A stretch of 64,000 nt of DNA from Octopus vulgaris (Eukaryota), in assembly GCA_951406725.2 (NCBI GenBank), contig OX597819.1, positions 128,092,001 through 128,156,000 of the forward strand, in the 5' to 3' direction. The notes under the pieces are model-generated. The model had not been told where the DNA came from and did no database searches. It was given only the letters and a program-made list of their open reading frames with translations. Below, piece by piece: positions 1,180 to 61,140 of the stretch. Made by a program: the position numbers and the translations under genes. Numbering within the stretch: the first letter of the stretch is position 1; each line of letters opens with the position of its first letter.

Positions 1180-2664
1180 GTAAATGATGTCCTATCTGAA
1201 TCTCAATGTGGCTTCCGATCTGGTAGAGGGACAATGGATATGATTTTCACAGCAAGACAGATGCAGAAGGAGTGCTATGAGCAGAATATGGATCTTGTCC
1301 AGGTATTCATTGATTTAACTAAGGCCTTTTCTATGGAAAATACTTGTCAAACTTGGATGTCCGGATCACTTTGTATCTATAATTAAATCATTTCATGATG
1401 GGATGGAGGCTTGGGTCAATGCTGGTGGTGCCATGGCGGGACCCATTCCTGTAGAGAATGGTGTCAAGCAGGGTGACATCCTTGCCCCAACTCTCTTTTC
1501 TTTGTACTTTGCTGCTGCTTTTACTCATGCTTTTGCTAAGGTTAGCTCTCTGGGAATATATGTCAGATATCGATCTTCTGGGCGCCTCTTTAATCTTCGC
1601 CGATTTGCTGCCGATTCAAAGGTTCCCCAGTCTATTATTCGTGACCTCCGTTATGCAGATGACTGTGACTTAGTCACTCATACAGTGGATGACATGCAAA
1701 TACTCATGAATTGCATTTCTGCTTCTTGCAGGGCATTTGGACTCAGCATTAGCCTGGACAAGACTGTCGTAATGTTCCAGCCTGCACCAGGAATTCCACA
1801 TATAGAACCAGCTATCTTGGTTGAAGGAACAATTCTGAAGGTAGTAGACAAGTTTGTCTACCTGGGCAGCACACTCAGCTGTTCTTGCTCCCTGGATGAA
1901 GAAATATCTTTCAGGTTGCAGAGAGCAACTAATTCCTTCCGGTCTCTTCAATCTCGCGTATGGTACCAACATGGCATCGCAAGGAGAACAAAAGTTGCTG
2001 GGTACCGTGCTTGTGTACTAACATCGCTTCTCTACTCATGTGAGACATGGACTCTGTACAAACGTCAGGTAAGGGTCCTTGAACGTTTTCATCAGAGATG
2101 TCTCAGACACATTCTCAATGTTGGCTGGACCTCAAAAATTCCAGGCACACAGATCCTGAGGACAGCTGATATCTTGAGTATTGAGGCGATGGTGCACAAG
2201 CACCGGTTGCTTTGGACTGGACACCTTATTAGAATGAAGGATAGAAGGGTTCCTAAGCAGATGCTCTATGGAGAACTTGTGAATGGAAGGAGACTCTGGC
2301 AGAAACCAAGGCTGCGATTTAAGGACTGTGTCAAGTCCTCATTAAAGGCCTATGATATGCAGGGCACTGACTGGGAGAAGAATGCCTGTCAGCGCCACAG
2401 ATAGAGGAAGCAGGTTAAGGAGGGGATCGACACTTTTGAGAGAGTACGTATCCAGCATGAAGAACTTAAGCGAGCTGCGCAAAAGCGCACGGCTCGAGTA
2501 GTGAATGGGGAAAGGTTAGTTTGCAATGTTTGCAGTCGTGTATGCTTGTCAAGAGCAGGGCTCATTAGCCAACAACCGAGCCGCAAATGCAAAGTATAAG
2601 TTAGTGATAGAGCGCACAATGTTCCTGAAGGTCGGCAATGGTCTTCCTCGGTCACGAGTGGACG

Positions 2665-3119: not shown

Positions 3120-3528
<409 letters not shown>

Positions 3529-4583: not shown

Positions 4584-4656
4584 AGGTTCCAGCGAGTTTC
4601 GAACTCGCGACTTTCTGCGTGTTAAGTAGATGTGATAACCACTACACCATAGAACC
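4584..4656 (-). tRNA. tRNA-Val(AAC): tRNA-Val(AAC), possibly mildly decayed
   Basis: Cloverleaf GGTTCTA/TGGAACC acceptor stem, GTG/CAC D-stem, TCTAC-TTAACAC-GCAGA anticodon arm (one A.C mismatch), GCGAG-TTCGAAA-CTCGC T-arm; T6 run about 5 nt downstream. Confidence 0.85.
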
Positions 4657-9923: not shown

Positions 9924-10356
9924 GGATCTTTTCAGTTTGAACGGCAGTTTTTTCTAGCGGTCTCATATGAAATTGTCACCCATAATTATGACCCTAGTAT
10001 CGATCTATTGCATTTCAATCTGTTTTAGGGTTACGGTTAGTTAGGGTTAGGGTTAGGGTTAGGGGTGGGGGGAAGGGTATCTTTTTTTCTTCACAAATGT
10101 AAATAAACCCAATCTGTTTCTTAAACGAGGGACATATTCATACGGCACAGAATGTTTTTTACCTCAATAGATGTCAGTGATTGGTTTAAATTGCAGAAAT
10201 TGAAGAAAAAAACCAACAAATATCTTACAAGCTATAGAATTTTCTCAATAAAGCCAAGATATATTTTATAAACACATTCTACCAGTATACGAAGTTTAAA
10301 ATGTTTAGTTACGTGGAAATTATTTTTTAAAACTGCCGGTCAAACCGAAAAGATCC
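9924..10356. mobile_element. MITE with ~29-bp TIRs, 9-bp TSD (Mutator-like) and internal (TTAGGG)n
   Basis: GGATCTTTTCAGTTTGAACGGCAGTTTT ... AAAACTGCCGGTCAAACCGAAAAGATCC; flanks gcggaataa (9915-9923) and gaggaataa (10357-10365). Confidence 0.85.
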
Positions 10357-11295: not shown

Positions 11296-11515
11296 AACAA
11301 TTGCAGCGTGGAAGGTGTTTATAAGCCATTTAAGAAACACACAAAACCGTTAGATTCACTTCAACATTTAAATTTAATTTGTCGAAATGTTGAAGTGAAT
11401 CTAACGGTTTTTGTGTGTTTCTTAAATGGCTTATAAACACCTTCCACGCTGCAATTGTTTTCGTTTCAGCACACGATCTCAGATCAAGTCACTCGCTATG
11501 CAAGTACATCGCCGT
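11296..11515 (+). mobile_element. Fold-back element, class I (hammerhead family shared with 25484)
   Basis: ~74-bp inverted arms 11296-11369 / 11385-11459; homologous to 25525-25614. Confidence 0.75.
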
Positions 11516-12061: not shown

Positions 12062-14275
12062 CACTGGTGAACAAAATTAATTATTTTTTAATCATCAGAG
12101 TTTCTGATTGACTTCTATGGATTAATTTTTTATGCTGATTACGAATCTGAAGTCTGATTTCCTCTGTCAGGTCACATTTTCATGTTAATGATACCTGCTG
12201 TTTTAAGTTATAGGATACGTAAAGCATGTCTGTATAAAGTATATTGAATACAAGATATAATTTCATGGCTTTTTATTGTACAAAATTAAAATTATTTTGT
12301 ACAAATAAGTTACAATACACTCAAATGCATAACAACTTGAAATCTTTGGGATTTGGACTTTCTATGGTGTTTTGTCTCAGGTTCATCCCTGTATAACATC
12401 CAACAGTAGTCAGCTAACATTCCTGCATTCCAAAATCCTTGATATCGTTATTCCAATGATGCAATATATTGATGAAAGTGTTCCCCTTGCTCATCAGACA
12501 CTGCTCCAAGGTTCTCTGCAAAAAAGTCCAGATGTGAATCAAGGAAATTGACTTTTAGTGACATCAGGCAGCCCATTGCAGTGTAGGAGTCTAGAAGACA
12601 TTTCACTCCAGTTCTAAACTCTAGAAATCTCTTGTTACCTAGGAAATTTTCACAGAGCCATTTGAAGGATTCCCATACTCAGTCTCATCCAGTGCTGTGA
12701 GGAAGTGGTTATCCTGGGTTCTTTTATCTGCGGGCCTATGAGTACGCCCTCCTTCAGTTTTACCTCGGTGATTTTTGGAAAGTTGGCCTTCGCATATTCA
12801 AAACATTTTCAGCTTTTCCTGGCAAGTGTCTTCACGAATTGTTTCATGAGGCCAAGCTTTATGTGAAGAGGGGGAAGAACATTTTCTGGGTTTAAAAGTG
12901 GTTTACTCTGGATGCTAGAAACTCCTAGCTCATAGGATTTTTACAAAGGCCACTCTGATTGCACATAGTGCTTGTTAGTTGCATGACTGTCCCATAGGCA
13001 TAAAAAGCAACAATATTTCGTGAACCCAGATTGCATTCCCATCAACATTCCAATCACCTTCAAGTCCCCGCATATTTTCCAGCTGTAGTTTGTATACTTT
13101 ATGGCATTGAGGATTATTTGCATGTTTTTATAACACTCCTTCATGTGCACTGAATGTTCTATGGGAATGGATGGTTTCTTATTGCTGTTGTGTAGTAGTA
13201 CTGCTTTGAGGTTTCTCTTAGATGAATCAATAAATAAGCGCCATTCAGCTGGAACATGCTCTTGGAACAAACAGCGAAATAACTCATCAGTGCTGTTACT
13301 GAAACAAAGTGGTCCATCAACAGAGAAGCATGAAGTCGGATCCCTATTTCTCTTCCTGAAATGAGTAATAAAAACGTTTCTTAAGCTGACACTTTCCTTG
13401 TAGATGAGATGCTAATAGCTCAGCTTTATCCTTCGACAGTGACAAGTCTCTAACTAAATCATTTAACTCTCCTTGAGAAAATTTCTGTGGTACGTCTTCA
13501 TTTTCAATCATGAAATCTGCATCCACTTCGGTGTCTTCCGCAGCAGTAGTATTTTATTCAGGAAATACATGTTCGCCAGACATCTGAAGGCCATTTTCTG
13601 GTGGTATTGGAATAGGAAGATCATCATCGTTGTGTGGTGCTGGTCTTCTTGCTGATTCCAAGTTGGGATACACAATCTTATGCTTGGTCTTTGCAGTAAA
13701 CCCACATACATTAACGTTGCAGAAATAAAAGTCCATGAAATGATCCTTTGGCTCTCTCCATATCATAGGTATTGCAAACGGCATAGCTCTCTACCTCTTA
13801 TTTAGCCAATCCCTTAGTCCATTTGAACAAGCTGAGCAGATGATATGCGGAGCCCAACTCTTATCTTGATCCCTGAGAGAGCAGCCAAAGTATAACTGGC
13901 AGATCTTGATTTCACTTGTGATGGCACGTTGCTGAGCTTTGGTGGTAAATGAACCACAGTCATGATAAAATATATCAGGACTGTTCTTGCAATGCCTTGA
14001 CATCCTGAGTAGAATTTGATGATGATGATGACTTGGCACCTTAAACAGAAAGTAAGATTTATGAAAAGAAAAGATTATGAAAACATAAAATTACAAAATG
14101 AATGCAAATAGTTATAAAGCAGAAGTCAGAATTTACCTGTATAAAACGTTTACGTGTAGCGATACTGCTGATGGGAGTTATATACCTGTCTCATCTCATC
14201 AGAAAAACTGTGCCTGATAGAAGGAAACCGATTATATTTTTGAAATCTGCGGACAAAACTAGCAACCAGCAAGCT
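12062..14275 (-). mobile_element. Decayed cut-and-paste DNA transposon; frameshifted DDE-type transposase pseudogene
   Basis: Colinear fragments DQDKSWAPHIICSAC, PFAIPMIWREPKDH, FSQGELNDLVRDLSLSKDKAELL, WRLFIDSSKRNLKAVLLHN, ICGDLKVIGMLMGMQSGFTKYCCFLCLWDS, HIKLGLMKQFVK, EQGEHFHQ, ADYCW; imperfect inverted subterminal sequences at ~12126-12180 and ~14203-14258. Superfamily not assigned. Confidence 0.85.
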
Positions 14276-17387: not shown

Positions 17388-17962
17388 TCTTTTACTTGTT
17401 ACAGTCACTAGACTGCGATCATGCTAGGAAACCACCTTGGAAAATTTTAGTCGAACAAATTGACCCAAGGACTTATTTCCTTCTAAATCCTGAGCGTTAT
17501 TCTGTTGGTTTCTTTTAGCGAACCGCCACATTACGGGAACGAAACACGCCAAAACCGGATGTCAAGCAATGTGGGAGACACTCATAGACATACTGTGTCC
17601 CCCCCCCCGCCCATATAAGCACAAATATATATATATATATATATATATCTACAGCATTCTTCTTTCAGTTTTCGTTTACCAAAATCACTCGGACGTTTTT
17701 GGTCGGCCAGGGGCTATTGTAGAATTTGGCCAATATGCCAGGAAGCGGGATTCACCTGGGATCATAGGGTTGGGAAGCAAATTTCCTACCACAGCCATGC
17801 CTGTGCCTTCAAATTCCGCCGAGGTCGACTTTGCCTTTCATCCTTTCGGGGTCGCTAAATAAAGTACCAGTTACGCACTGGGGTCGATGTAATCGACTTA
17901 ATCCCTTTGTCTGTCCTTGTTTGTCCCCTCTGTGTTTAGCCCCTTGTGGGTAGTAAAGAAAT
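17388..17962. mobile_element. Diverged SINE family D (-) joined directly to the 3' half of SINE family A (+)
   Basis: 17388-17808 matches family D reversed; 17809-17962 matches 3321-3474. Confidence 0.8.
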
Positions 17963-18004
17963 ATATATATTCATGTCCCTATCTCCATAGTTATACGTTG
18001 CGCA

Positions 18005-19728: not shown

Positions 19729-19776
19729 GTGTGTGTATGTATGTGTGTGTATGTGTGTGTGTGCGTGTGTGTGTGT

Positions 19777-20111
19777 GTAAATTAATATGTGACAATTACT
19801 CAGTAGCCAAGATAAAACTCCGAGTTTCGGTTGCCGAGGTGGAAATCCACACCACCATTTCTTCGGTTATCTGGCCATCTCTTTTTTGGATAATCGCCAG
19901 ACATCGGTTGAGGACTCTAACACACAGAAGAATTTAATAAAAAGAGATGGCCAGATAACCGAAGAGACGGTGGTGTGGATTTCCACCTCGGCATCCGAAG
20001 AGTTTTATCGTGGTTACTGAATAATTGTCACATATTAATTTACAGATAAATTCCTCTATTTGCATAATACTGAAGTCTCTTTCTTTCTTTTGTTATCTTA
20101 CCGTTTTTACC
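19777..20111 (+). mobile_element. Fold-back element, class I, with hammerhead-like motif (Penelope-like pLTR remnant)
   Basis: ~105-bp inverted arms 19777-19886 / 19939-20043; second copy of the family at 24426-24670. Confidence 0.8.
19806..19875 (-). ncRNA. Type I hammerhead-like ribozyme, U4C variant
   Basis: GCCAGAUAA-CCGAAGA-[imperfect stem II]-GAAA-CUCGGAG-UU-UUAUCUUGGC; ~9-bp stem I. Confidence 0.6.
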
Positions 20112-20720
20112 ATTATATATATATATATATATAGAACCAATAATTATAATGATATAGAATGTGGAGATTTGATCATCCTAAACATTTATTTTCTTTTATC
20201 TAACCATTTCGTACACCATATTTTTATGGTTATTACAACCTACACGTGTTTCCACTGCACAGACTATGGGCAAGTTGAACATGCAATTGAGCCTAAGTTT
20301 TTTCGCAGCTTTGTTACAGAGAATATCACCTGACAGAGAAGCGAACATGAAATTACCCATCGGTGGAATTTACAGCATCAAGTACAACCCATAGGTGTCA
20401 TAAATATTAAATACTAATCGATACGGTTAGCTTAATCTCGAAGAAAACGTAATCATGACATCACACACACACACAAACAACCACCCCATATATATATATA
20501 TAAATTAGAAAAAAACACCTTTTATCAATTCAAAATGAACAATTAAATTACACCATCTAGAAAATTACATATAATACACATGGCCTTGCTATTTGCTTTT
20601 GAGCCAAATTAACTAACTAACTAACTAGCAAATATTAAAATTAAAATACATACATATATATATGTTTGTGTGTTAGTATGTACGTATGTACGCATGTATA
20701 TGTATATATATATACGCGCG

Positions 20721-24385: not shown

Positions 24386-24425
<40 letters not shown>

Positions 24426-24427
<2 letters not shown>

Positions 24428-24670
24428 TAAAAACGGTAAGATAACAAAAGAAAGAAAGAGACCTCAATATTATGTAAATAGAGGAAAGTTATCAGTAAAT
24501 TAATATGTTACCATTATTCAATAGCCAAGATAAAACTCTGAGTTTCGGATGCCGAAGTGGAAATCCACAACACCATCTCCGAAGAGATGGTGTTGTGGCT
24601 TTCCACTTCGGCATCCGAAACTCAGAGTTTTATGTTGGCTATTGAATAATGGTAACATATTAATTTACAG
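24426..24670 (-). mobile_element. Fold-back element, class I, same family as 19777
   Basis: 85-bp arms 24495-24579 / 24584-24668 around a 4-nt loop; plus strand reads CCGAAGA(24579)..GAAA CTCAGAG TT. Confidence 0.8.
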
Positions 24671-24676
24671 ACACAT

Positions 24677-25483: not shown

Positions 25484-25530
25484 TGTCAGTGAACAGGTCG
25501 CGGTCTTAAAGCGATGAAAGTATTTTGACA
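25484..25530 (+). ncRNA. Type I hammerhead-like ribozyme, G3-C8 variant
   Basis: UGUCA-GUGAACA-g-GUCGC-ggucuuaaa-GCGAU-GAAA-GUAU-UU-UGACA. Confidence 0.6.
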
Positions 25531-25614
25531 GATTAAACTTAAATGTTGAAGTGAATCGAACGGCTTTTGTGTGTTTCTGAAATGGCTTACCAACACCTTC
25601 CACGCTGCAATTGT

Positions 25615-25667
<53 letters not shown>

Positions 25668-31879: not shown

Positions 31880-31940
<61 letters not shown>

Positions 31941-31943
<3 letters not shown>

Positions 31944-32180
31944 TTTTTGTGTAATGAGATAAAAACCAAGGCTGTATAGATATTAGAGTATTTATAGATA
32001 GAAAGTCTTACAGCAGTTTCTAGAATATTAATTAATAATAATATCCCTTCATCGGAGATGGTTTGAGAAGGGATATTATTATTAATTAATATTCTAGAAA
32101 CAGCTGTAAGACTTTCTATCTATAAATGCTCTAATATCTATACAGCCTTGGTTTTTTTTATCTCATTCCACAAAACATTC
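31941..32180. mobile_element. Fold-back element, class I, with hammerhead-like motif at 32005-32058 (-)
   Basis: ~110-bp arms; minus strand UCU-CCGAUGA-AGGGAUAUU..AAUAUUCUA-GAAA-CUGCUG-UA-AGA; plus arm has palindromic GAAA-CAGCUG-UA. Confidence 0.78.
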
Positions 32181-32394
32181 TTATATACACACGTTGACAT
32201 AGAACCAACGTTGAACCCTTTATTCGCAATATTACCGAATCTGGAACTTACCTATGGTCTGTCTATAGCACTTATTCAGCATTACCTGACACCTTTGGGT
32301 TTCAAAGACCCCATTATCTCCTATATATATATAGTGTGTGCTGTTCCATGATGTTAACCAAAAGAAGCGCTGCGGCTGGTGAGAGACAATATTA

Positions 32395-33025
32395 TTTAAT
32401 AAACACAATACGTGTTATTTATGTGCTACTATTAGTTTCATGCGACGAAAGCATCTCAGATGGTAATTTTGCTATGTCTGGTACCTTATGGCAATCTTCA
32501 GGCAATACCCACACGGCATAACAAGCTAAAAATATGACGGTAGCATGAGCGAAAAACAAAAACGAGAAAAGGCGAGAAAGAAGTAGACATAAGAGGTGGA
32601 AGGTTGAAAAACCACAAAACAAAAAAAGAAAACAGGAAGAAACAAAAGGTGGAATTAGTTATTTCCTTTTGACTGTAACATATAAGTTCCTGTTGGCGAA
32701 TTCGGAAGTACCATCCTCTCCGAATCCTTTCAGCTTATAGTTTACGGTCAAAGGGAACATAACTCGAATTCTTTTGTTTTGCTTCTTTATGTTTTCTTTT
32801 TCGTTTTCTGGTTTTTCAACTTTCCACCTTTTATATCTATCTACTTCTTTCTCACTTTTTCTCGTTTTTCCACTCATCCGTCCCATTTTTAGTTTGTTAT
32901 GCCTATGTCGGCATTGCCTGAAGATTGCGATATAGCACTAGACATGTTAAACAATGCAGTCTGAGATGCTTTCATCGCATGAAACTAATAGTAGCATATA
33001 AGTAACATATATTATGTTTATCAAT
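32395..33025. mobile_element. Large diverged fold-back element with a hammerhead-like motif in each arm
   Basis: ~290-bp imperfect arms; plus strand CTGAAGA(32918)-t-TGCGAT..ATCGCA-t-GAAA(32981)-CTAA-TA; mirrored at 32436-32501. Confidence 0.72.
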
Positions 33026-48802: not shown

Positions 48803-49443
48803 TAAATAGAGACAGACAGACAGACGGATAGACAGATAGATAGACCGATAGATAGGGACATATACTTTATTAGAGCACATAAATTTCTATATAACTGTAC
48901 TATCACCTGATGTTAAAATCGACAAATAAATACATATATTCTTGTTTGCAAATCTTAAAAGGATAATAGTATATCATAATGTCATAATGTTTCATTTATT
49001 TCAAAATTCACTACTGTATCATCACCACATCTTATTTTGAAACAGATAGTGATAGGAATGTACACATATAAGGCTAATGATGTCAATATCTCTTTGAAAA
49101 TCAAAGGTAATAGGATGACTATGAACAACTGCTTTGAAACCTTCAGCTTCAATATCCAAAATATAAATTTACATTTATATCAATAATTATTGATGACTTG
49201 GTTTTGTAAGTAAATACCTAAGTGATAATCTGGATAATCTAGGATTTTGAGAAATCAACCAGCCGACTTGGAAATTACAAATATAGTCTGTAAACAGAAC
49301 AGTAAAAATATGTAAGACGTTTCTCAATTTTGTTATTTGACATTGTTTTTATTATCTACATTCTAACGATGGAGCTTTGTATCATTGTTAAAGACCAGCT
49401 CCTTCATCAGAGGCAAAACTTACATAATTAAACAGTAGAGAAA

Positions 49444-49484
<41 letters not shown>

Positions 49485-49486
<2 letters not shown>

Positions 49487-49713
49487 GGAGTAAACACATA
49501 AATGTGAAACAAGGTGGAAAAAAAGAGTACTCAAATACCAGTGGTAGAGTAATATGCTTTATTTAAAGCAACAGAAAATTCAACAAAATCTGTTACTCTG
49601 AGTTTCTCGTTGCCGTTCATCAGACAATCAGACAGTAACAAAAACTGTCTGATGAACGGCAACGAGAAACTCAGATGACAGATTTTGTTGAATTTTCTCC
49701 TGCTTTAAATAAA

Positions 49714-49714
<1 letters not shown>
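49485..49714. mobile_element. Fold-back element, class I, between two (TA)n tracts
   Basis: ~70-bp arms 49557-49626 / 49646-49714, each containing a hammerhead motif. Confidence 0.85.
49590..49626 (-). ncRNA. Minimal type I hammerhead ribozyme
   Basis: UGU-CUGAUGA-ACG-GCAA-CGA-GAAA-CUCAGAG-UA-ACA: full core, GNRA-capped stem II, GUA cleavage triplet. Confidence 0.8.
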
Positions 49715-49772
<58 letters not shown>

Positions 49773-50517
49773 GTGTGTGTGTGTGTGTGTATACGTGTAT
49801 ATATATATATATGGATATATATGTATATACATATATGGATATAAATATACCTACATGCATACATACATACATACACACTAACATATTCTATCGATCTCTT
49901 TTTGTCAAACGTAAACAAGCCAACACCGCTTTTTAAGTTATGACGGGAGACAAACTCATACACACACGCATACACACATACGCACACGCACATACACACA
50001 CAAATATGCATATATATATATATATATATGAATATACATAGGTGTGTGTTTTTATGTGCGCGTGTGTGTAAGAGTGTGTGGATGTGTGTGTACTTTTTAT
50101 AAGGGTCTGTTTATCTGGTACCCTTTGTTCCTCATTATCTTATATTCGCACACTCAATTACACACACATATACCCGTGCACATACATCCACACACACACA
50201 CACATGTATATCTTGGTATATGTATATTATTATTTTGCTGTGATTCAGCGATTGCCTGCTATCTAGTGTCGGGTCCTAAAGTGTATATTCGCTTAAATCG
50301 CCAACTGTTTCTCTTTCTTCCTCTCTTTTTCTCTTTACTTATGTGTATGTATATGTACATTTGCACCTATACGCACCTGTATTCATATTCTTTAATATGA
50401 ATTGTCGGATTTTTTTCTAGATTTTTTTCACTATAAGAAACTTATGTACACACTCATGCACACACACATTCGTGAGTGATACATGCAATTATGTACTTAT
50501 ATATACATGTACACACA

Positions 50518-51146: not shown

Positions 51147-51484
51147 ATATATAAGAAAATAGTAAAGTGTGAAAAAACGACAGAAGGTTTAAATGTTAAA
51201 AAATATATATATTTGTGTCAAAATGTCTGGAGAATATTGGAAAAATTTTTTTTTTTTTTTTTTTTTCCCTTTCCTTAAAATGACATAATTTTAAAATTTT
51301 TAAAGAAATTACCGGTTTCGCGTGTAGCTTTTCAAATTTCTTGAAAATTTTAAAATTATGTCATTTTAAGGAAAGGGAAAAAAAAAAAAAAAAATTTTTC
51401 CAATATTCTCCAGACATTTTGACACAAATATATATATTTTTTAACATTTAAGCCTTCTGTCGTTTTTTCACACTTTACTATTTT

Positions 51485-51494
<10 letters not shown>
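51147..51494. mobile_element. Near-perfect ~160-bp-arm palindrome with a hammerhead-like motif at its centre
   Basis: Arms 51147-51309 / 51336-51494. Confidence 0.85.
51305..51340 (-). ncRNA. Minimal type I hammerhead-like ribozyme, U3-A8 variant
   Basis: GAAAU-UUGAAAA-GC-UACAC-GC-GAAA-CCGG-UA-AUUUC. Confidence 0.65.
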
Positions 51495-51528: not shown

Positions 51529-53528
51529 TTAGATATGTTTCGACCAGAGATTGGTCCAGGCCATGTCTAACTTAATATTATTCGAATCCTGTTTAAGTCA
51601 AGTTTTGTTCAAGTAGTGAGTTCTTGTTGGGTGAGTTGTATCCAATTATGGGTCGCTTATCTGGTATTCTTTGAAGGAATCTATCCAGACTCTGTTTGAA
51701 GTTGATGGGGTCCTTTTCCTCTTTGATCTCCCTCGGGACAATGTTAAATAGGGCAGGGCCTGTTGAGGAAAAGAAATTATGTTGCAGTGTACATGTATGT
51801 TGTGATCTTGAATTTGGCAGGGGACGTATAGCCCGTGGTCCAAGTCTTGGATGAACCTTGAAGCTAATGTTTAGGTCGTTTGGGCAAAGTTGGCGGTATA
51901 TTTTCCACATCGTACAAATGATGTACCGCTCACGGCGACGCTGGAGGGAGTAAAGTTTCAAGGCTTTAAGGCGATCCCAATAATCGAGAGCATCCATGCC
52001 TTCAATTTGTTTAGTGAGAGCCCTCTGGGGTGACTCAATTCTGGAGATGTTTTGTCTTGTGTGAGGAGACCACAGTGGGCAGCAGTATTCAAGGTGTGGC
52101 CGTACAAAGGAGGAAAAAAGTGGTATGATGACACCTTGTTCTCTGGACCGGAAAGTTCTTAAGATCCAGGAACTCATCCTACGAGCTATATCGACCTTCT
52201 TGTTGATGTGTGCACTCCAACTGAGATCGTCATCAACAATTACACCCAGGTCTCTGATATTGTTAGAGGCTGTGAGCGGTTCCCCTGAAGGAAGAGAGTA
52301 TGGTTGTTTTAGTGAGGAATTTCTTCCAAATTGCATCAGCTCAAATTTTCCCTCATTCAGTTGCATTTTGTTTCTGTCTGCCCATTGACTCACAGCATAT
52401 AGATCAGACTGGAGTTGAGTTCGGTCTGCTTCTTCATTGACGGTTTGCTGGAGCTTAGTGTCATCAGCGAATATTTTCACTTTGCAGTGATGTACGACAC
52501 TGGAAAGGTCGTTTACGTAAATTATGAAGAGTAGCGGACCCAAAACAGTTCCCTGGGGAACACCGCTGGTGACTTTTGCTGGGTTTGAGTGGACTCCATC
52601 AACTACAACATGTTGTGTTCTATTCGCCAGGAAATACTGAATCCAGCGTAGAACTTTTCCACGGATTCCAACATTTGCCAATTTTGAGAGTAGGATGTTA
52701 TGGTCTACCCTGTCGAACGCTTTACTGAAGTCAAGATATATGACGTCAGAGTTCGAACCTGTTCCCAAGGCTTTGAGTACATCTTCAATGTGGTGTAAGA
52801 GCTGTGTTAGACAGTCCCTGCCACAGCGAAAGCCATGCTGATTTGAATTTAGGAGTTTGTGGGTCTCCAGGAAGTCAGCTATCCTTGATCTTAACACTCT
52901 TTCAAACACTTTAATGATGTGGGAGGTGAGTGAGATTGGGCGATAGTTGACTGCGAGGGATCTGTTTCCCTGTTTGAAAACCGGGATGACCGACTGGGAT
53001 AGAAACTGTTTCGGTATATAACCTGCGTCTAACGAGTTTCTCCAGAGGTTGGTCAGAGGGACTGCAAGTTGATATCTACATTCCTTCAGGAGACTAGCGG
53101 GAAATCTATCAGGGCCTACAACAGAGTAATGTTTGACCTCATTTATTGCTGCTACGATGTCGGTGGCAGTGAAGGTTATGTCTGCGATTTTGTGTTGGGA
53201 GTCAACTTCGTTCGTTTCCCTCACATCAATATCAGTGGGAACACTGAAGACAGAGCAGTATTGTTTCTGCAGTATTTCTGCCATTTCTTTAGCATCGTGT
53301 TGGGGAATGCCGTTATCATCAACCAATGACCCAATGGGTGAGACAGTGGTTCTATGCTTATTTGCATAAGAATAGAACACTTTTGGGTTCTGTTTGATGT
53401 TTTTGATTACCCATTGTTCCTCCACAGCTCTTTGATTTTCAATGGAGGTTTTCATGTTAGTCTGCAGATGAAGTTTTTCCAGCTCTAGTCTTTTCATTGT
53501 TGTTGAATGTGGATGTTGTGTGTGGGAA
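51525..53528 (-). mobile_element. 5'-truncated CR1/L2-group LINE; uninterrupted ORF2 RT and C-terminal region, stop at 51593
   Basis: NYRPISLTSHIIKVFER, QHGFR, YLDFSKAFDRVDH, SGVPQGTVLGPLLF, FADD, RDLGV, RPHLEYCCPLWSP, SLQRRRERY; no endonuclease domain; (TA)n on both sides. Confidence 0.95.
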
Positions 53529-53556
53529 TATATATATATATATATATAAATATAAA

Positions 53557-53880
53557 AAATTAGAAAAAACCCACCTTTTATCAATTCAAAATGAACAATT
53601 ATATTACACCATCTAGAAAATTACATATGAAATATAGTCTTTTCTAGATGGTTTAGGAATATCCTTCAATAATGAATTCTAAAAGAATGGTTCTATTTTA
53701 CCTGTAAGTTCCATAATCGACGATAATGAGGGTAATTTCTCAGAAACGCTAGTTATAAATATAATAATAATTATTATTATTTGAGGGAATAAAATCCAAA
53801 CTTACAAGGAAAAAAATTCAATTTAGAAATACTAGAATTTTTTTCCTTGTATGTTTGGATTTTATTCCCTCAAATAATAA
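53557..53880. mobile_element. TA-adjacent repeat with fold-back end
   Basis: Arms 53774-53819 / 53835-53880; related to 22225-22300 and 22324-22395. Confidence 0.65.
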
Positions 53881-54552
53881 TTATATGTATGTATGTATAT
53901 ATATATAACGTGTAATTTCTTTCGTATATGTTTGTTTTAGTATATATGCATTTCTGAAAGGTAATTTAAGGCGCACTGGCAGAATAGTTACCAAGCAGGA
54001 CAAAATGTTTAACACCAATTTGTCTTAATATTCTGACTTTAAATGCTGCCAAGGTCAAGTTTGCATTACATCCTTTTGGATTCGATAAATAATTACTATG
54101 TAAGACTTGGGGTCGATGTAATCAACTTTCCCACTACTTAAAATTATTGGCCTTGTACCAAAAATGGGAGCAAAGGCTATTTCATACGCTTCACGCGATA
54201 CAGTTCATTTATACATGTGTTGGTATATTTCAGAAGAAATTTGCCTTAATTAATAAGATCTGGATTACGAGTAACTCAAACGAATTATGAGTTATGTAAA
54301 TTTTACATCTTATTTTTTAATGATTGGATACCAGTAATAATTTACGATAATTACAACAAAAGCAATATGAATATACACACATACACAAACATATGCGTGT
54401 ATGTATATATATATATATATAAAAACATACTATTTTCCTGCCTCTCCTACTAACGGCGTTACACTATTGTATCTCTGTCTATGCCATACAATAACTATGT
54501 TGCCTGAGATACACCAGCACATTACACATTATCTCTCCCCCTCTCTCTCTCC

Positions 54553-54592
<40 letters not shown>

Positions 54593-54593
<1 letters not shown>

Positions 54594-54830
54594 TATTTGA
54601 GGGAAACCACTATGTGGCCACCCTTATGCTAGAATAGATCCGCTATGGTCTTACCACTAAGAAATGTTCTCAAGAAAAATTTAGCAAAACAACCAAAACG
54701 TAATCGAGCAAGACAAAAGAAAAAGCAACAGCTAAAAGCAAAAAGAAAAAGACAAAAGAAGATAAAAGCAAGACCATAGCGTATCTATTTCTAGGATAAT
54801 GGTGTCCACATAAGGGTTTCCCTCTAATAT
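54593..54830. mobile_element. Fold-back element, class II-like
   Basis: ~60-bp imperfect arms 54593-54652 / 54770-54830 containing GAGGG..ACC..ATGCTAGAA(A)TAG. Confidence 0.65.
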
Positions 54831-56214
54831 GTATATAATACAATTTTACTGAACCTTCATTTTTTTTTATATGCTAGACCACTGGTGTGAAATCGATGTT
54901 GATTGAATTAATATCTAATTTAAATGTGATTTGTCTGTAATCTGTAGTCGAGCGATTATGTCGAATTATATAACTTATACTTCTATATTGTATCAGTTGG
55001 AAGAATAAAAGTTGATATTTAAATATTTATATTTAAGCATTTATAAACCTAATATACGGACACATTTCAGTTGATGTCCTTCTGGGCTGACTTTGCATTT
55101 TATGTTTCCTAAATGACAAGTAAAGTTATGGTGCCAACATAATCGTTTATACACTTTTTACCAACAATTTATTATGTGCTTATAAAGAAAATCAATAATT
55201 TACACATATCTCCTTCTGGCCGACGAGACACGGCATATCAAAACACTTGTCCCAGAATGCCGTGCGCCAATGAGCCGAGTATGTTTAAACTCTGAAGTCC
55301 TTCTCCTATGACTTACAATGCAGAGACCAGCATGTTTGCGTTTGAACCTGCCTCTACGTGTTAAGAATAAATATGCGAACGTCTACGAAAAACAAATCAT
55401 GATTGTCGAATATATGACGAGCATTTATTCGGTCGTTGTTGTTGTTTAACACCAAGCTAGTTGTGATCAAATACGTTCCACACATGATCATCGAAACTTT
55501 CTTGTTAATCTAAGGCTACATCGTCAAATGTGTTCTTTTCTTTGTTTTGTTTCTTTTCGTAAAGGATATTGCTTGATTTGAGACAAAAGTTGTTACTATT
55601 CTGAAAAGGTCGAGGAACAACATAGAGTTAAAAGCTGATGCTTGTTTAATGAAGAAAATAAGCTACCATGGATTTTGGAAAATTAATAATGGTTAAAATG
55701 TAAATACCCATAAAATTCCTAGTGTTTAAAATAGGAAACATTAGTATCAAATGTTATTCATTCCTTTAGTAATCCCTTGAAAGGTTCATTTCCCTCACAA
55801 AGTTTTATCATATATTGAAACCTTTTTTACAGCATAGTACACAAGCGCTTAGGTAAATAAATCATTTGTATAGAAGTTTCCGTTATTACAGTTTAGCAAG
55901 CACATCTGAATTTTAACGACACATGATATTATGAAAGCCGGCTTAACTGGGCAGCAAAATGTTTTCCTTTTTCCTAAATTTTTATATCTTAATATAATAT
56001 ATTGTGTTGATCCTTTATTTAATGAATTATTGGGCTAATTGTTTTACGTTAATTAAATTGATATATTTAAATAAATCTACAATTTTTTAGCAAGTGGTTA
56101 CTTATTTTAGTTAACTGACATAGTATGACTATTCACTTTACTAATGAATTAACATTTCTCATCAACATATAGAACTGGAAGTTCACATGGCCTCCTTTGC
56201 AGCTTACAGTATAT

Positions 56215-56562
56215 ATTTCTTTACCACCCACAAGGGGCTAAACACAGAGTGGGAAAACAAGGACAGACAAAAGGATTAAGTCGATTACATCGACCCTAGT
56301 GCGTAACTGGTACTTACTTTATCGACCCCGAAAGGATGAAAGGCAAAGTCGACCTCGGCGGAAATTGAACTCAGAACGTAGCAGCAGACGAAATACCTAT
56401 TTCTTTACTACCTACAAGGGGCTAAACATAGAGGACAGGCAAGGATAGATACACGGATTAAGTCGATTACATCGAACCCAATGCATAACTGGTACTTAAT
56501 TTATCGACCCCGAAAGGATGAAAGGCAAAGTCGACCTCGGCGGAATTATTTATCGACCCCGA
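56215..56562 (-). mobile_element. Head-less concatemer of SINE family A inside a single 17-bp TSD
   Basis: TSD tgcagcttacagtatat at 56198-56214 and 56563-56579. Confidence 0.88.
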
Positions 56563-57754: not shown

Positions 57755-58065
57755 AATTGAGGGTAAAATTAATTAATTATTAATCAATATCACCAAGTGT
57801 TCAGTATGCAAAGGGACCATTTAAGGCGAATTCAAATTATTACATTATATAAAAGGGCTTAGTAAAATAAATTACTTTGCCGCATACTTAGCATTTGATT
57901 TTTTAATGTCCTTACCCCCAAACTTTTGTGAGTTGAATTAAGCAAACGCTATATATGAGAGAGATTTTCTTTAAGTATTAGAAATAGCTTTAAAAAAGTT
58001 TTTTGGCTGCTATTTCTAATGAGTTCAGTATGCGGCAAAGTAATTTATTTTACTAAGCCCTTTTA

Positions 58066-58071
<6 letters not shown>
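57751..58071. mobile_element. Fold-back element, class II, between (TA)n tracts
   Basis: 45-bp arms 57844-57888 / 58027-58071; minus strand reads GAAATAGCAGCCAAA near 58003-58017. Confidence 0.72.
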
Positions 58072-58139
<68 letters not shown>

Positions 58140-60855: not shown

Positions 60856-61088
60856 GGCGGCGGCGAGCTGGCAGAAATGTTAGCACGCCGGGCGAAATGC
60901 TCAGCAGTATTTCGTCTGCCGTTACGTTTTGAGTTCAAAATCCGCCGAGGTCGACTTTGCCTTTCATCCTTTCGGGGTCGATAAATTAAGTACCATTTAC
61001 ATACTGGGGTCGATGTAATCGACTTAATCCGTTTGTCTGTCATTGTTTGTCTCCTCTGTGTTTAGCCCCTTGTGGGCAATAATGAAAT
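60856..61088 (+). mobile_element. SINE family A, full length
   Basis: Matches 3248-3474. Confidence 0.9.
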
Positions 61089-61091
61089 AAC

Positions 61092-61140
<49 letters not shown>

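Follow-up and report, generated by a model that had tools for sequence, protein, structure and literature searches.

Results and discussion

Anatomy of the locus

The window analysed here is a 64,000-nt stretch of Octopus vulgaris DNA (GCA_951406725.2, contig OX597819.1, positions 128,092,001 to 128,156,000 of the forward strand), to which all coordinates below refer. It is AT-rich and packed with microsatellites (168 tandem-repeat rows in a window scan), and by its character it reads as non-coding animal DNA. An element of 232 bases at 49485-49716 is flanked by (TA)n tracts and consists of two arms in inverted orientation. Its features were assigned as follows.

49451-49484, no strand: left (TA)n tract, likely insertion target (tandem-repeat scan)
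49485-49551, minus: 3' extension ("tail", ~65 nt), present in the minus arm only (arm comparison)
49552-49636, minus: minus arm, a 5'-truncated repeat end with a hammerhead motif (arm alignment)
49594-49596, minus: GUA triplet, predicted scissile bond 49594/49593, family state (motif scan)
49595-49603, minus: helix III, a near-palindrome (ACUC A GAGU) of a kind that lends itself to dimers between molecules (motif scan, dimer folding)
49607-49616, minus: helix II, two G-C pairs with a GCAA loop and A·A at 10.1/11.1 (fold check)
49617-49623, minus: CUGAUGA core box (pattern match)
49619-49634, minus: 8-nt tandem duplication displacing the helix I 5' strand (tandem-repeat scan)
49636-49639, no strand: head-to-head junction of the two 5'-truncated arms (arm alignment and depth)
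49639-49716, plus: plus arm, with family-type helix I, core at 49649-49669 and the family's short end (arm alignment)
49717-49770, no strand: right (TA)n tract (tandem-repeat scan)

The inverted repeat at 49557-49714, which had been proposed from the sequence by an earlier reader, was recovered at 86% over 161 columns (E 4e-46). The accompanying claim of (TA)n on both sides is right for 49485-49716 but not for the start originally given, since the left tract lies 72 nt away from it; at the other end, 2 nt separate the stated boundary from the right tract. The arms diverge by 5 substitutions and 1 gap across 75 columns. They share the predicted stretch of identity, 30 nt long, which begins at 49646 rather than 49645 and runs through 49675; upstream of 49646 they differ. 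Some changes are private to one arm: the minus arm has one at 49571, and those of the plus arm affect 49700, the triplet and the arm's two final bases. It follows that this copy has decayed.

The hammerhead motifs

Both arms contain CUGAUGA-ACGGCAACGA-GAAA, at 49623-49603 on the minus strand and 49649-49669 on the plus strand, and thus carry the CUGANGA and GAAA boxes, just as the original prediction had it; its choice of motif class, the type I hammerhead, was also judged right. The bare core pattern is not significant in this window, with 2 matches against 0.65 expected and at least 2 in 12 of 100 shuffles. The full motif, defined as the core together with a self-complementary helix III, UH and at least 3 helix I pairs, was found twice in the window against a shuffle mean of 0.07, and none of 60 shuffles reached 2. 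No Rfam hammerhead family matched at gathering score across the whole window, and in 49400-49800 the 42 matches obtained with E up to 10 include none. The miRNA matches in that interval were discarded, as each fell short of the gathering score and they reflect the hairpin.

The GUA triplet attributed to the minus arm was located at 49596-49594, providing an NUH/NHH triplet with A15.1-U16.1, and the cut predicted between 49594 and 49593 (minus strand) agrees in position with it. The description of this arm as intact did not survive. The duplicated copies 49619-49626 and 49627-49634 stand in place of the minus-arm helix I 5' strand, and the helix I ladder read from the core comprises U-A, G-C, U-A and U·G before a mismatch, that is, three Watson-Crick pairs and one G·U. 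In fold predictions a stable helix I is absent from this arm (pair probabilities <0.04). Moreover, the 10.1-11.1 pair that should close helix II is replaced by A·A in both arms. According to the accessible part of PMC3088659, this pair is the most conserved one after 15.1-16.1 and U·U is tolerated there.

The plus arm keeps a helix I of 4 bp, a mismatch and 8 further pairs (read from 49636), with pair probabilities of 0.94-1.0. As had been noted, it reads TGACAG where the minus arm has GTAACAG. With TG in the place of GTA, its GUA triplet is lost, and both triplet and helix III are broken at 49676-49677. A register that keeps A15.1-U16.1 yields AUG and one helix III pair, which is no NUH/NHH triplet; the H position excludes G (PMC3923133, in the part available). 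The two lesions are therefore complementary, the plus arm keeping the family helix I and the minus arm the family helix III and triplet. By these tests neither arm would be expected to be a working hammerhead.

A high-copy family in public sequencing runs

Part of the stretch is contained in 21 of 24 listed public runs from 9 studies. Four of the 24 were aligned, namely X1, X2 and X5, which are DNA-like, and X14, which we presume to be RNA. All four gave aligning contigs (5445, 3451, 3317 and 299, from three organisms); these data are short contigs weighted by depth and not copy numbers.

Among the matches listed, a long end at 49488 lies beside (TA)n in 55, 40 and 58 contigs of X1, X2 and X5, and a short end at 49552 lies beside (TA)n in 30, 31 and 37 contigs of the same runs. 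Two 3' ends, separated by ~65 nt, are thus preferred in the family; the minus arm stops at the long one, and the plus arm stops at the position corresponding to the short one. On the other side, again among the matches listed, the family leaves the window sequence at 49626 in 73, 50 and 49 contigs of X1, X2 and X5. Contigs departing there go on with the A and C run of the plus arm, and it is therefore the plus arm that has the family helix I. In X1, depth drops from 1.3-2.3 million over 49525-49612 to 56 at 49629-49636.

These data bear on whether the element could be a non-autonomous, MITE-like foldback DNA transposon inserting at TA, with the hammerhead as a passenger. Its long inverted repeat between TA tracts would suit such an origin. 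However, terminal inverted repeats reaching both ends and a fixed centre, as expected of a MITE or foldback element, were not found: the arms are unequal, so that the termini are not inverted repeats, and the depth collapse at 49629-49636 and the divergence of contigs at 49626 show a centre that is not common to the family. The joints listed (15 of 30) join positions in the left arm to positions in the right arm, at no constant place and with sides of 21-29 letters; they speak weakly against a MITE-like origin and weakly for other inverted copies. We consider a transposon of this kind highly improbable. Joints near 49678-49687 were also considered as possible cleavage-site ends, a reading that was dropped since the plus-arm lesion halts alignments there.

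The junction is spanned by no contig of the four runs, this assembly being the only place where the insertion is observed, as would be the case if the palindrome were a strand-switch chimera arising during assembly or library preparation. This absence from the contigs proves nothing in itself. The arms differ from each other by the substitutions and gap given above, each with private changes, they stop at two different family ends, and in a sister family (below) the same asymmetry of the tail recurs at two distinct palindromic loci. An artefact is, accordingly, the least credible of the explanations that we weighed.

The state of individual core positions in the family was also examined. The GUA triplet at 49594-49596 shows no variant of at least 3% in the three DNA-like runs. 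Position 49607 shows none of at least 3% in any of the four runs, although sister subfamilies with indels (loose ends at 49563 and 49567) are possibly uncovered there; the A·A at 10.1/11.1 is thus the state of the aligned subfamily and not a private lesion. At U4 (49622), C makes up 52, 27, 49 and 88% of depth in X1, X2, X5 and X14, and U4C reduces activity in vitro (PMC3088659, accessible part). Two family patterns had no match in collections of viral, metagenome and prokaryote sequences, which is unsurprising for an animal repeat, and in the part of the literature on octopus, Penelope and hammerheads that was covered we did not find this family reported.

Predicted folding

Folding was computed with nearest-neighbour energies, without tertiary contacts or protein. 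As RNA, the element forms a hairpin with z = -17.9; the read-through hairpin has an energy of -115.7 kcal/mol, and either strand gives -114 to -116 kcal/mol. The minus-strand hammerhead fold in context lies 53 kcal/mol above the hairpin, which is predicted to bury both cores. Since the arms are head to head, the antisense arm is transcribed first from either flank. A transcript made here would thus be expected to form a long hairpin, that is, double-stranded RNA and not a ribozyme.

The segment 49585-49630 (minus strand) had been recommended as the best substrate for a first experiment. This advice is not borne out by folding, as the segment is predicted to misfold both as a monomer and as a dimer. 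It folds no better than its shuffles (z = +0.71), its predicted share of the hammerhead fold is ~4e-6, and its core is predicted to pair with the helix III loop. For its dimer, the double hammerhead reaches -3.4 kcal/mol against -15.4 kcal/mol for the best fold. A family-type dimer model built from the two arms reached -18.6 kcal/mol against -21.4 kcal/mol for the best fold.

Could the minus arm nonetheless work as it stands, as a monomer or a dimer, next to a dead twin? The core boxes, the GUA triplet and the palindromic helix III are all there. In the parts of the sources at hand, natural hammerheads with a helix II of 1-2 bp or a basal U·U can cleave (PMC3088659), and active natural hammerheads with GUA exist (PMC1636495). 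However, helix I is reduced to 3 bp and a G·U, no pair in helices I and III reaches a probability of 0.04, the core is instead paired to the loop of helix III, the dimer hammerhead lies 12 kcal/mol above the best fold and, in context, the arm is buried in the hairpin. We therefore hold a working minus arm to be improbable. A negative cleavage result with 49585-49630 (minus strand) would not disprove that the family carries a hammerhead, since published Penelope-like element (PLE) hammerheads cleave weakly or need protein.

The open frame through the core and the search for a coding partner

An open frame of 31 codons runs through the core at 49534-49626 (minus strand), with its ATG inside CUGAUGA. 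Protein searches with it returned no hits (3 candidates, none scoring) and no Pfam match. A change at 49565 that introduces a stop in this frame accounts for 21-35% of depth in the DNA-like runs, as read by hand. Coding constraint on the frame was therefore set aside, the searches being empty and the stop common.

Upstream of 49639 the family sequence, as given by a loose end in X2 (8 contigs), is by hand reading open and in frame with the core, and it may resemble the end of a GIY-YIG domain. This upstream sequence closes with a pyrimidine-rich stretch and AG exactly at the start of the plus arm, a possible 3' splice site. LINE-like RT frames are present at 1319-2404 (plus strand) and 51593-53620 (minus strand), both with Pfam RVT_1 (E 3e-11 and 1e-31).

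No RT or GIY-YIG ORF tied to the family was evident in the ORF list of the window, and neither the protein searches nor the scans of viral, metagenome and prokaryote collections gave a coding partner. This would suit a fragment of a non-LTR retrozyme, solo or inverted, instead of the end of a coding PLE, and retrozymes have been reported to derive from PLE pLTRs, so that the two classes intergrade (bioRxiv 10.64898/2026.07.22.740005, in part). However, retrozymes as a class are defined by units of 150-450 bp in direct tandem (PMC7229834, accessible part) and no tandem direct unit is present at this locus; a one-sided tail and inverted truncation are, in turn, traits described for PLEs. A retrozyme piece is in our judgement about as improbable as the MITE-like transposon.

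Other palindromes and repeats in the window

The window holds 18 inverted pairs at 17 loci. We searched these for the 3' half of the hammerhead, consisting of GAAA, a self-complementary helix III and UH. This half motif was found in 7 of the 17 loci, with 10 hits against 0.66 expected from the rate outside them, the arms of one locus not being independent. It points outward in 6 of the 7 (five besides 49485-49716), and the inward-pointing half motif at 60.7k is probably due to chance. At 5 of the 17 loci a microsatellite lies at most 6 nt from one edge and 35-86 nt from the other.

More specifically, the cores at 19.8k, 24.5k and 32.0k read CCGANGA. The palindromes at 19776-20112 and 24425-24671 belong to a sister family whose core is CCGAAGA and whose triplet is GUU; its helix II is long, its helix III palindrome is identical, and a tail of ~68 nt is present on one side. 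Comparison of the family at 49485-49716 with this one gave scores of 65 and 84, where shuffles reached at most 79, so that homology is marginal. A covariation of the helix III loop with core position 4 was considered and dropped, as it holds at 19.8k and fails at 24.5k. In the minus arm at 19.8k, helix I is still long, and this arm may be better suited to testing. The palindrome at 31934-32187 has the core CCGAUGA, a long AU-rich helix II, a palindromic helix III and GUA; by eye, A stands opposite A at the base of helix II at 32.0k. Head-to-head palindromes with outward GAAA-palindrome-GUA halves are also found at 32396-33024 and 51147-51493, and the right arm of the latter appears to start near the predicted cut site.

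Long inverted repeats with no clear hammerhead half occur at 11296-11459, 53754-53905, 54592-54831, 57838-58077 and 2711-2969, some of which adjoin (TA)n; a single-arm relative of the first lies at 25522-25625. The remainder of the window includes one tRNA gene at 4584-4656 (minus strand), a short internal (TTAGGG)7 array at 10025-10064 and a SINE-like dispersed repeat of ~230 nt at ~90% identity (363-590, 3248-3475, 17808-17970, 56206-56547, 60862-61098 and others), which occurs once as a 182-nt tandem. A frame of 156 aa at 12941-13411 (minus strand) has no Pfam match and is presumably reminiscent of a DNA-transposon protein fragment.

Proposed origin of the element

Overall, we consider it likely that the element consists of head-to-head, 5'-truncated ends of a high-copy family between (TA)n tracts, probably a PLE (pLTR) remnant, with both hammerheads lesioned and predicted to be inactive. 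The arms, their two 3' ends, the lesions, the abundance and recurrence of the family and its preferred ends beside (TA)n were observed directly; membership of the PLEs is proposed from structure. Four traits expected of a PLE terminus were found: a hammerhead with palindromic helix III near the 3' end, inverted head-to-head 5'-truncated copies, a one-sided tail and a bias towards microsatellites. The observation behind the original prediction was partly confirmed and its interpretation partly supported; the Penelope-like origin, which explains the arrangement, had been left unnamed.

Published work, in the portions accessible, describes the steps from which such a structure could arise. Inverted 5'-truncated PLE copies have a one-sided tail of 30-40 bp and (TA)n targets (PMC8557442), and PLE junctions are mostly head-to-head (PMC3846280). 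Two RT start sites define the tail, both strands are extended and uncut RNA is the template (PMC11167929). We propose that an RT/GIY-YIG protein from an autonomous PLE elsewhere would have nicked (TA)n on both strands, and that two cDNAs would have been primed at two start sites ~65 nt apart on uncleaved RNA. Both arms run through the cut site, which implies that the template RNA had not self-cleaved. Both cDNAs would then have stopped in the helix I 5' strand and been joined head to head, the 8-nt duplication likely resulting from slippage at this junction, and the copy would have decayed after insertion. Self-priming on an antisense template has been proposed as an alternative route to the same structure (PMC3846280, in part). 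Fold-back priming on helix I was rejected here, as the second arm would miss the core, yet both arms hold it.

The motif of the parent element was likely a weak type I hammerhead that would need a palindromic-helix-III dimer or the help of a PLE protein. In the available parts of the reports, metazoan PLE hammerheads show no cleavage as monomers and low cleavage as dimers (PMC4209133), one PLE hammerhead cuts only with PLE protein (PMC11167929), and the role of PLE hammerheads is described as still open (PMC8557442).

The locus itself is minor: the repeat is abundant, this copy of it is ordinary and decayed, and it would serve poorly as a test substrate. It does offer a clean PLE insertion signature, with a long end, a short end and a head-to-head junction. 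Back-to-back hammerheads in this genome would accordingly be insertion products that bury their own ribozymes.

A-to-G changes at the scissile nucleotide

Outside the junction rows, the substitutions of at least 3% found in X14 only are at 49579 (26%), 49593 (4.8%) and 49594 (5.3%), each in 12-14 contigs. All three are A-to-G on the ribozyme strand and reach at most 0.06% in the three DNA-like runs. Position 49594 is A17, at the cleavage site, and 49593 is A1.1. This pattern, seen in one run that is presumed to be RNA, fits A-to-I editing; a few well-expressed genomic variants would give the same pattern. Inosine at A17 of an engineered hammerhead was indicated to slow cleavage and not to abolish it (PMC3923133, in part). 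Among the matches listed in a partly covered literature on hammerheads and A-to-I editing, there was no report of natural editing at a PLE hammerhead.

A broader proposal, which we regard as speculative and unlikely, is that the hammerheads of the PLE families in this genome form an attenuated subtype of their own, marked by A·A at the helix II base and by C4 in many copies, combined with host A-to-I editing at A17 and its neighbour. If true, editing at A17 would constitute natural ADAR control of a retroelement ribozyme. The family is more useful than this copy: the core of the family is a natural variant, and its scissile nucleotide bears what may be a mark of editing.

Comparison with known systems

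The sources compared here were available in part. Octopus vulgaris PLEs are listed in PMC13282606, the accessible text of which makes no mention of hammerheads. Like non-LTR retrozymes (PMC7229834), the family is a short non-coding repeat with a type I hammerhead; unlike them, it is inverted and truncated here and not arranged in tandem direct units.

With metazoan PLE hammerheads (PMC4209133) it shares the type I topology, CUGANGA and GAAA, a palindromic helix III and a cut predicted after NUA, as well as a position near the element 3' end, close opposite-strand pairs (described there as 100-700 bp apart) and many truncated copies. The nearest rows listed in that study by Cervera and De la Peña (2014) are Marsupenaeus japonicus and Saccoglossus kowalevskii(2); no cephalopod row was found in the supplement searched. 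The family differs in its helix II, which has two pairs under A·A where the PLE consensus has G10.1-C11.1 as first pair and longer stems, and in its U4, which is often C.

Like the inverted pLTRs of EN+ PLEs (Neptune, Hydra and Naiad, which favour microsatellites, and Adineta Penelope; PMC8557442, PMC3846280), the element presents head-to-head 5'-truncated copies, a tail at one end, a (TA)n target and no discernible target duplication. Unlike them, its tail is ~65 nt rather than 30-40, and no ORF is retained. In PAc/Poseidon of Anolis the ORF starts in stem II (PMC11167929), whereas the core frame here closes 29 codons after its ATG, with no relatives detected. With that same system the element has in common two 3' ends past the hammerhead, insertion of an uncut site and an AT-rich target.
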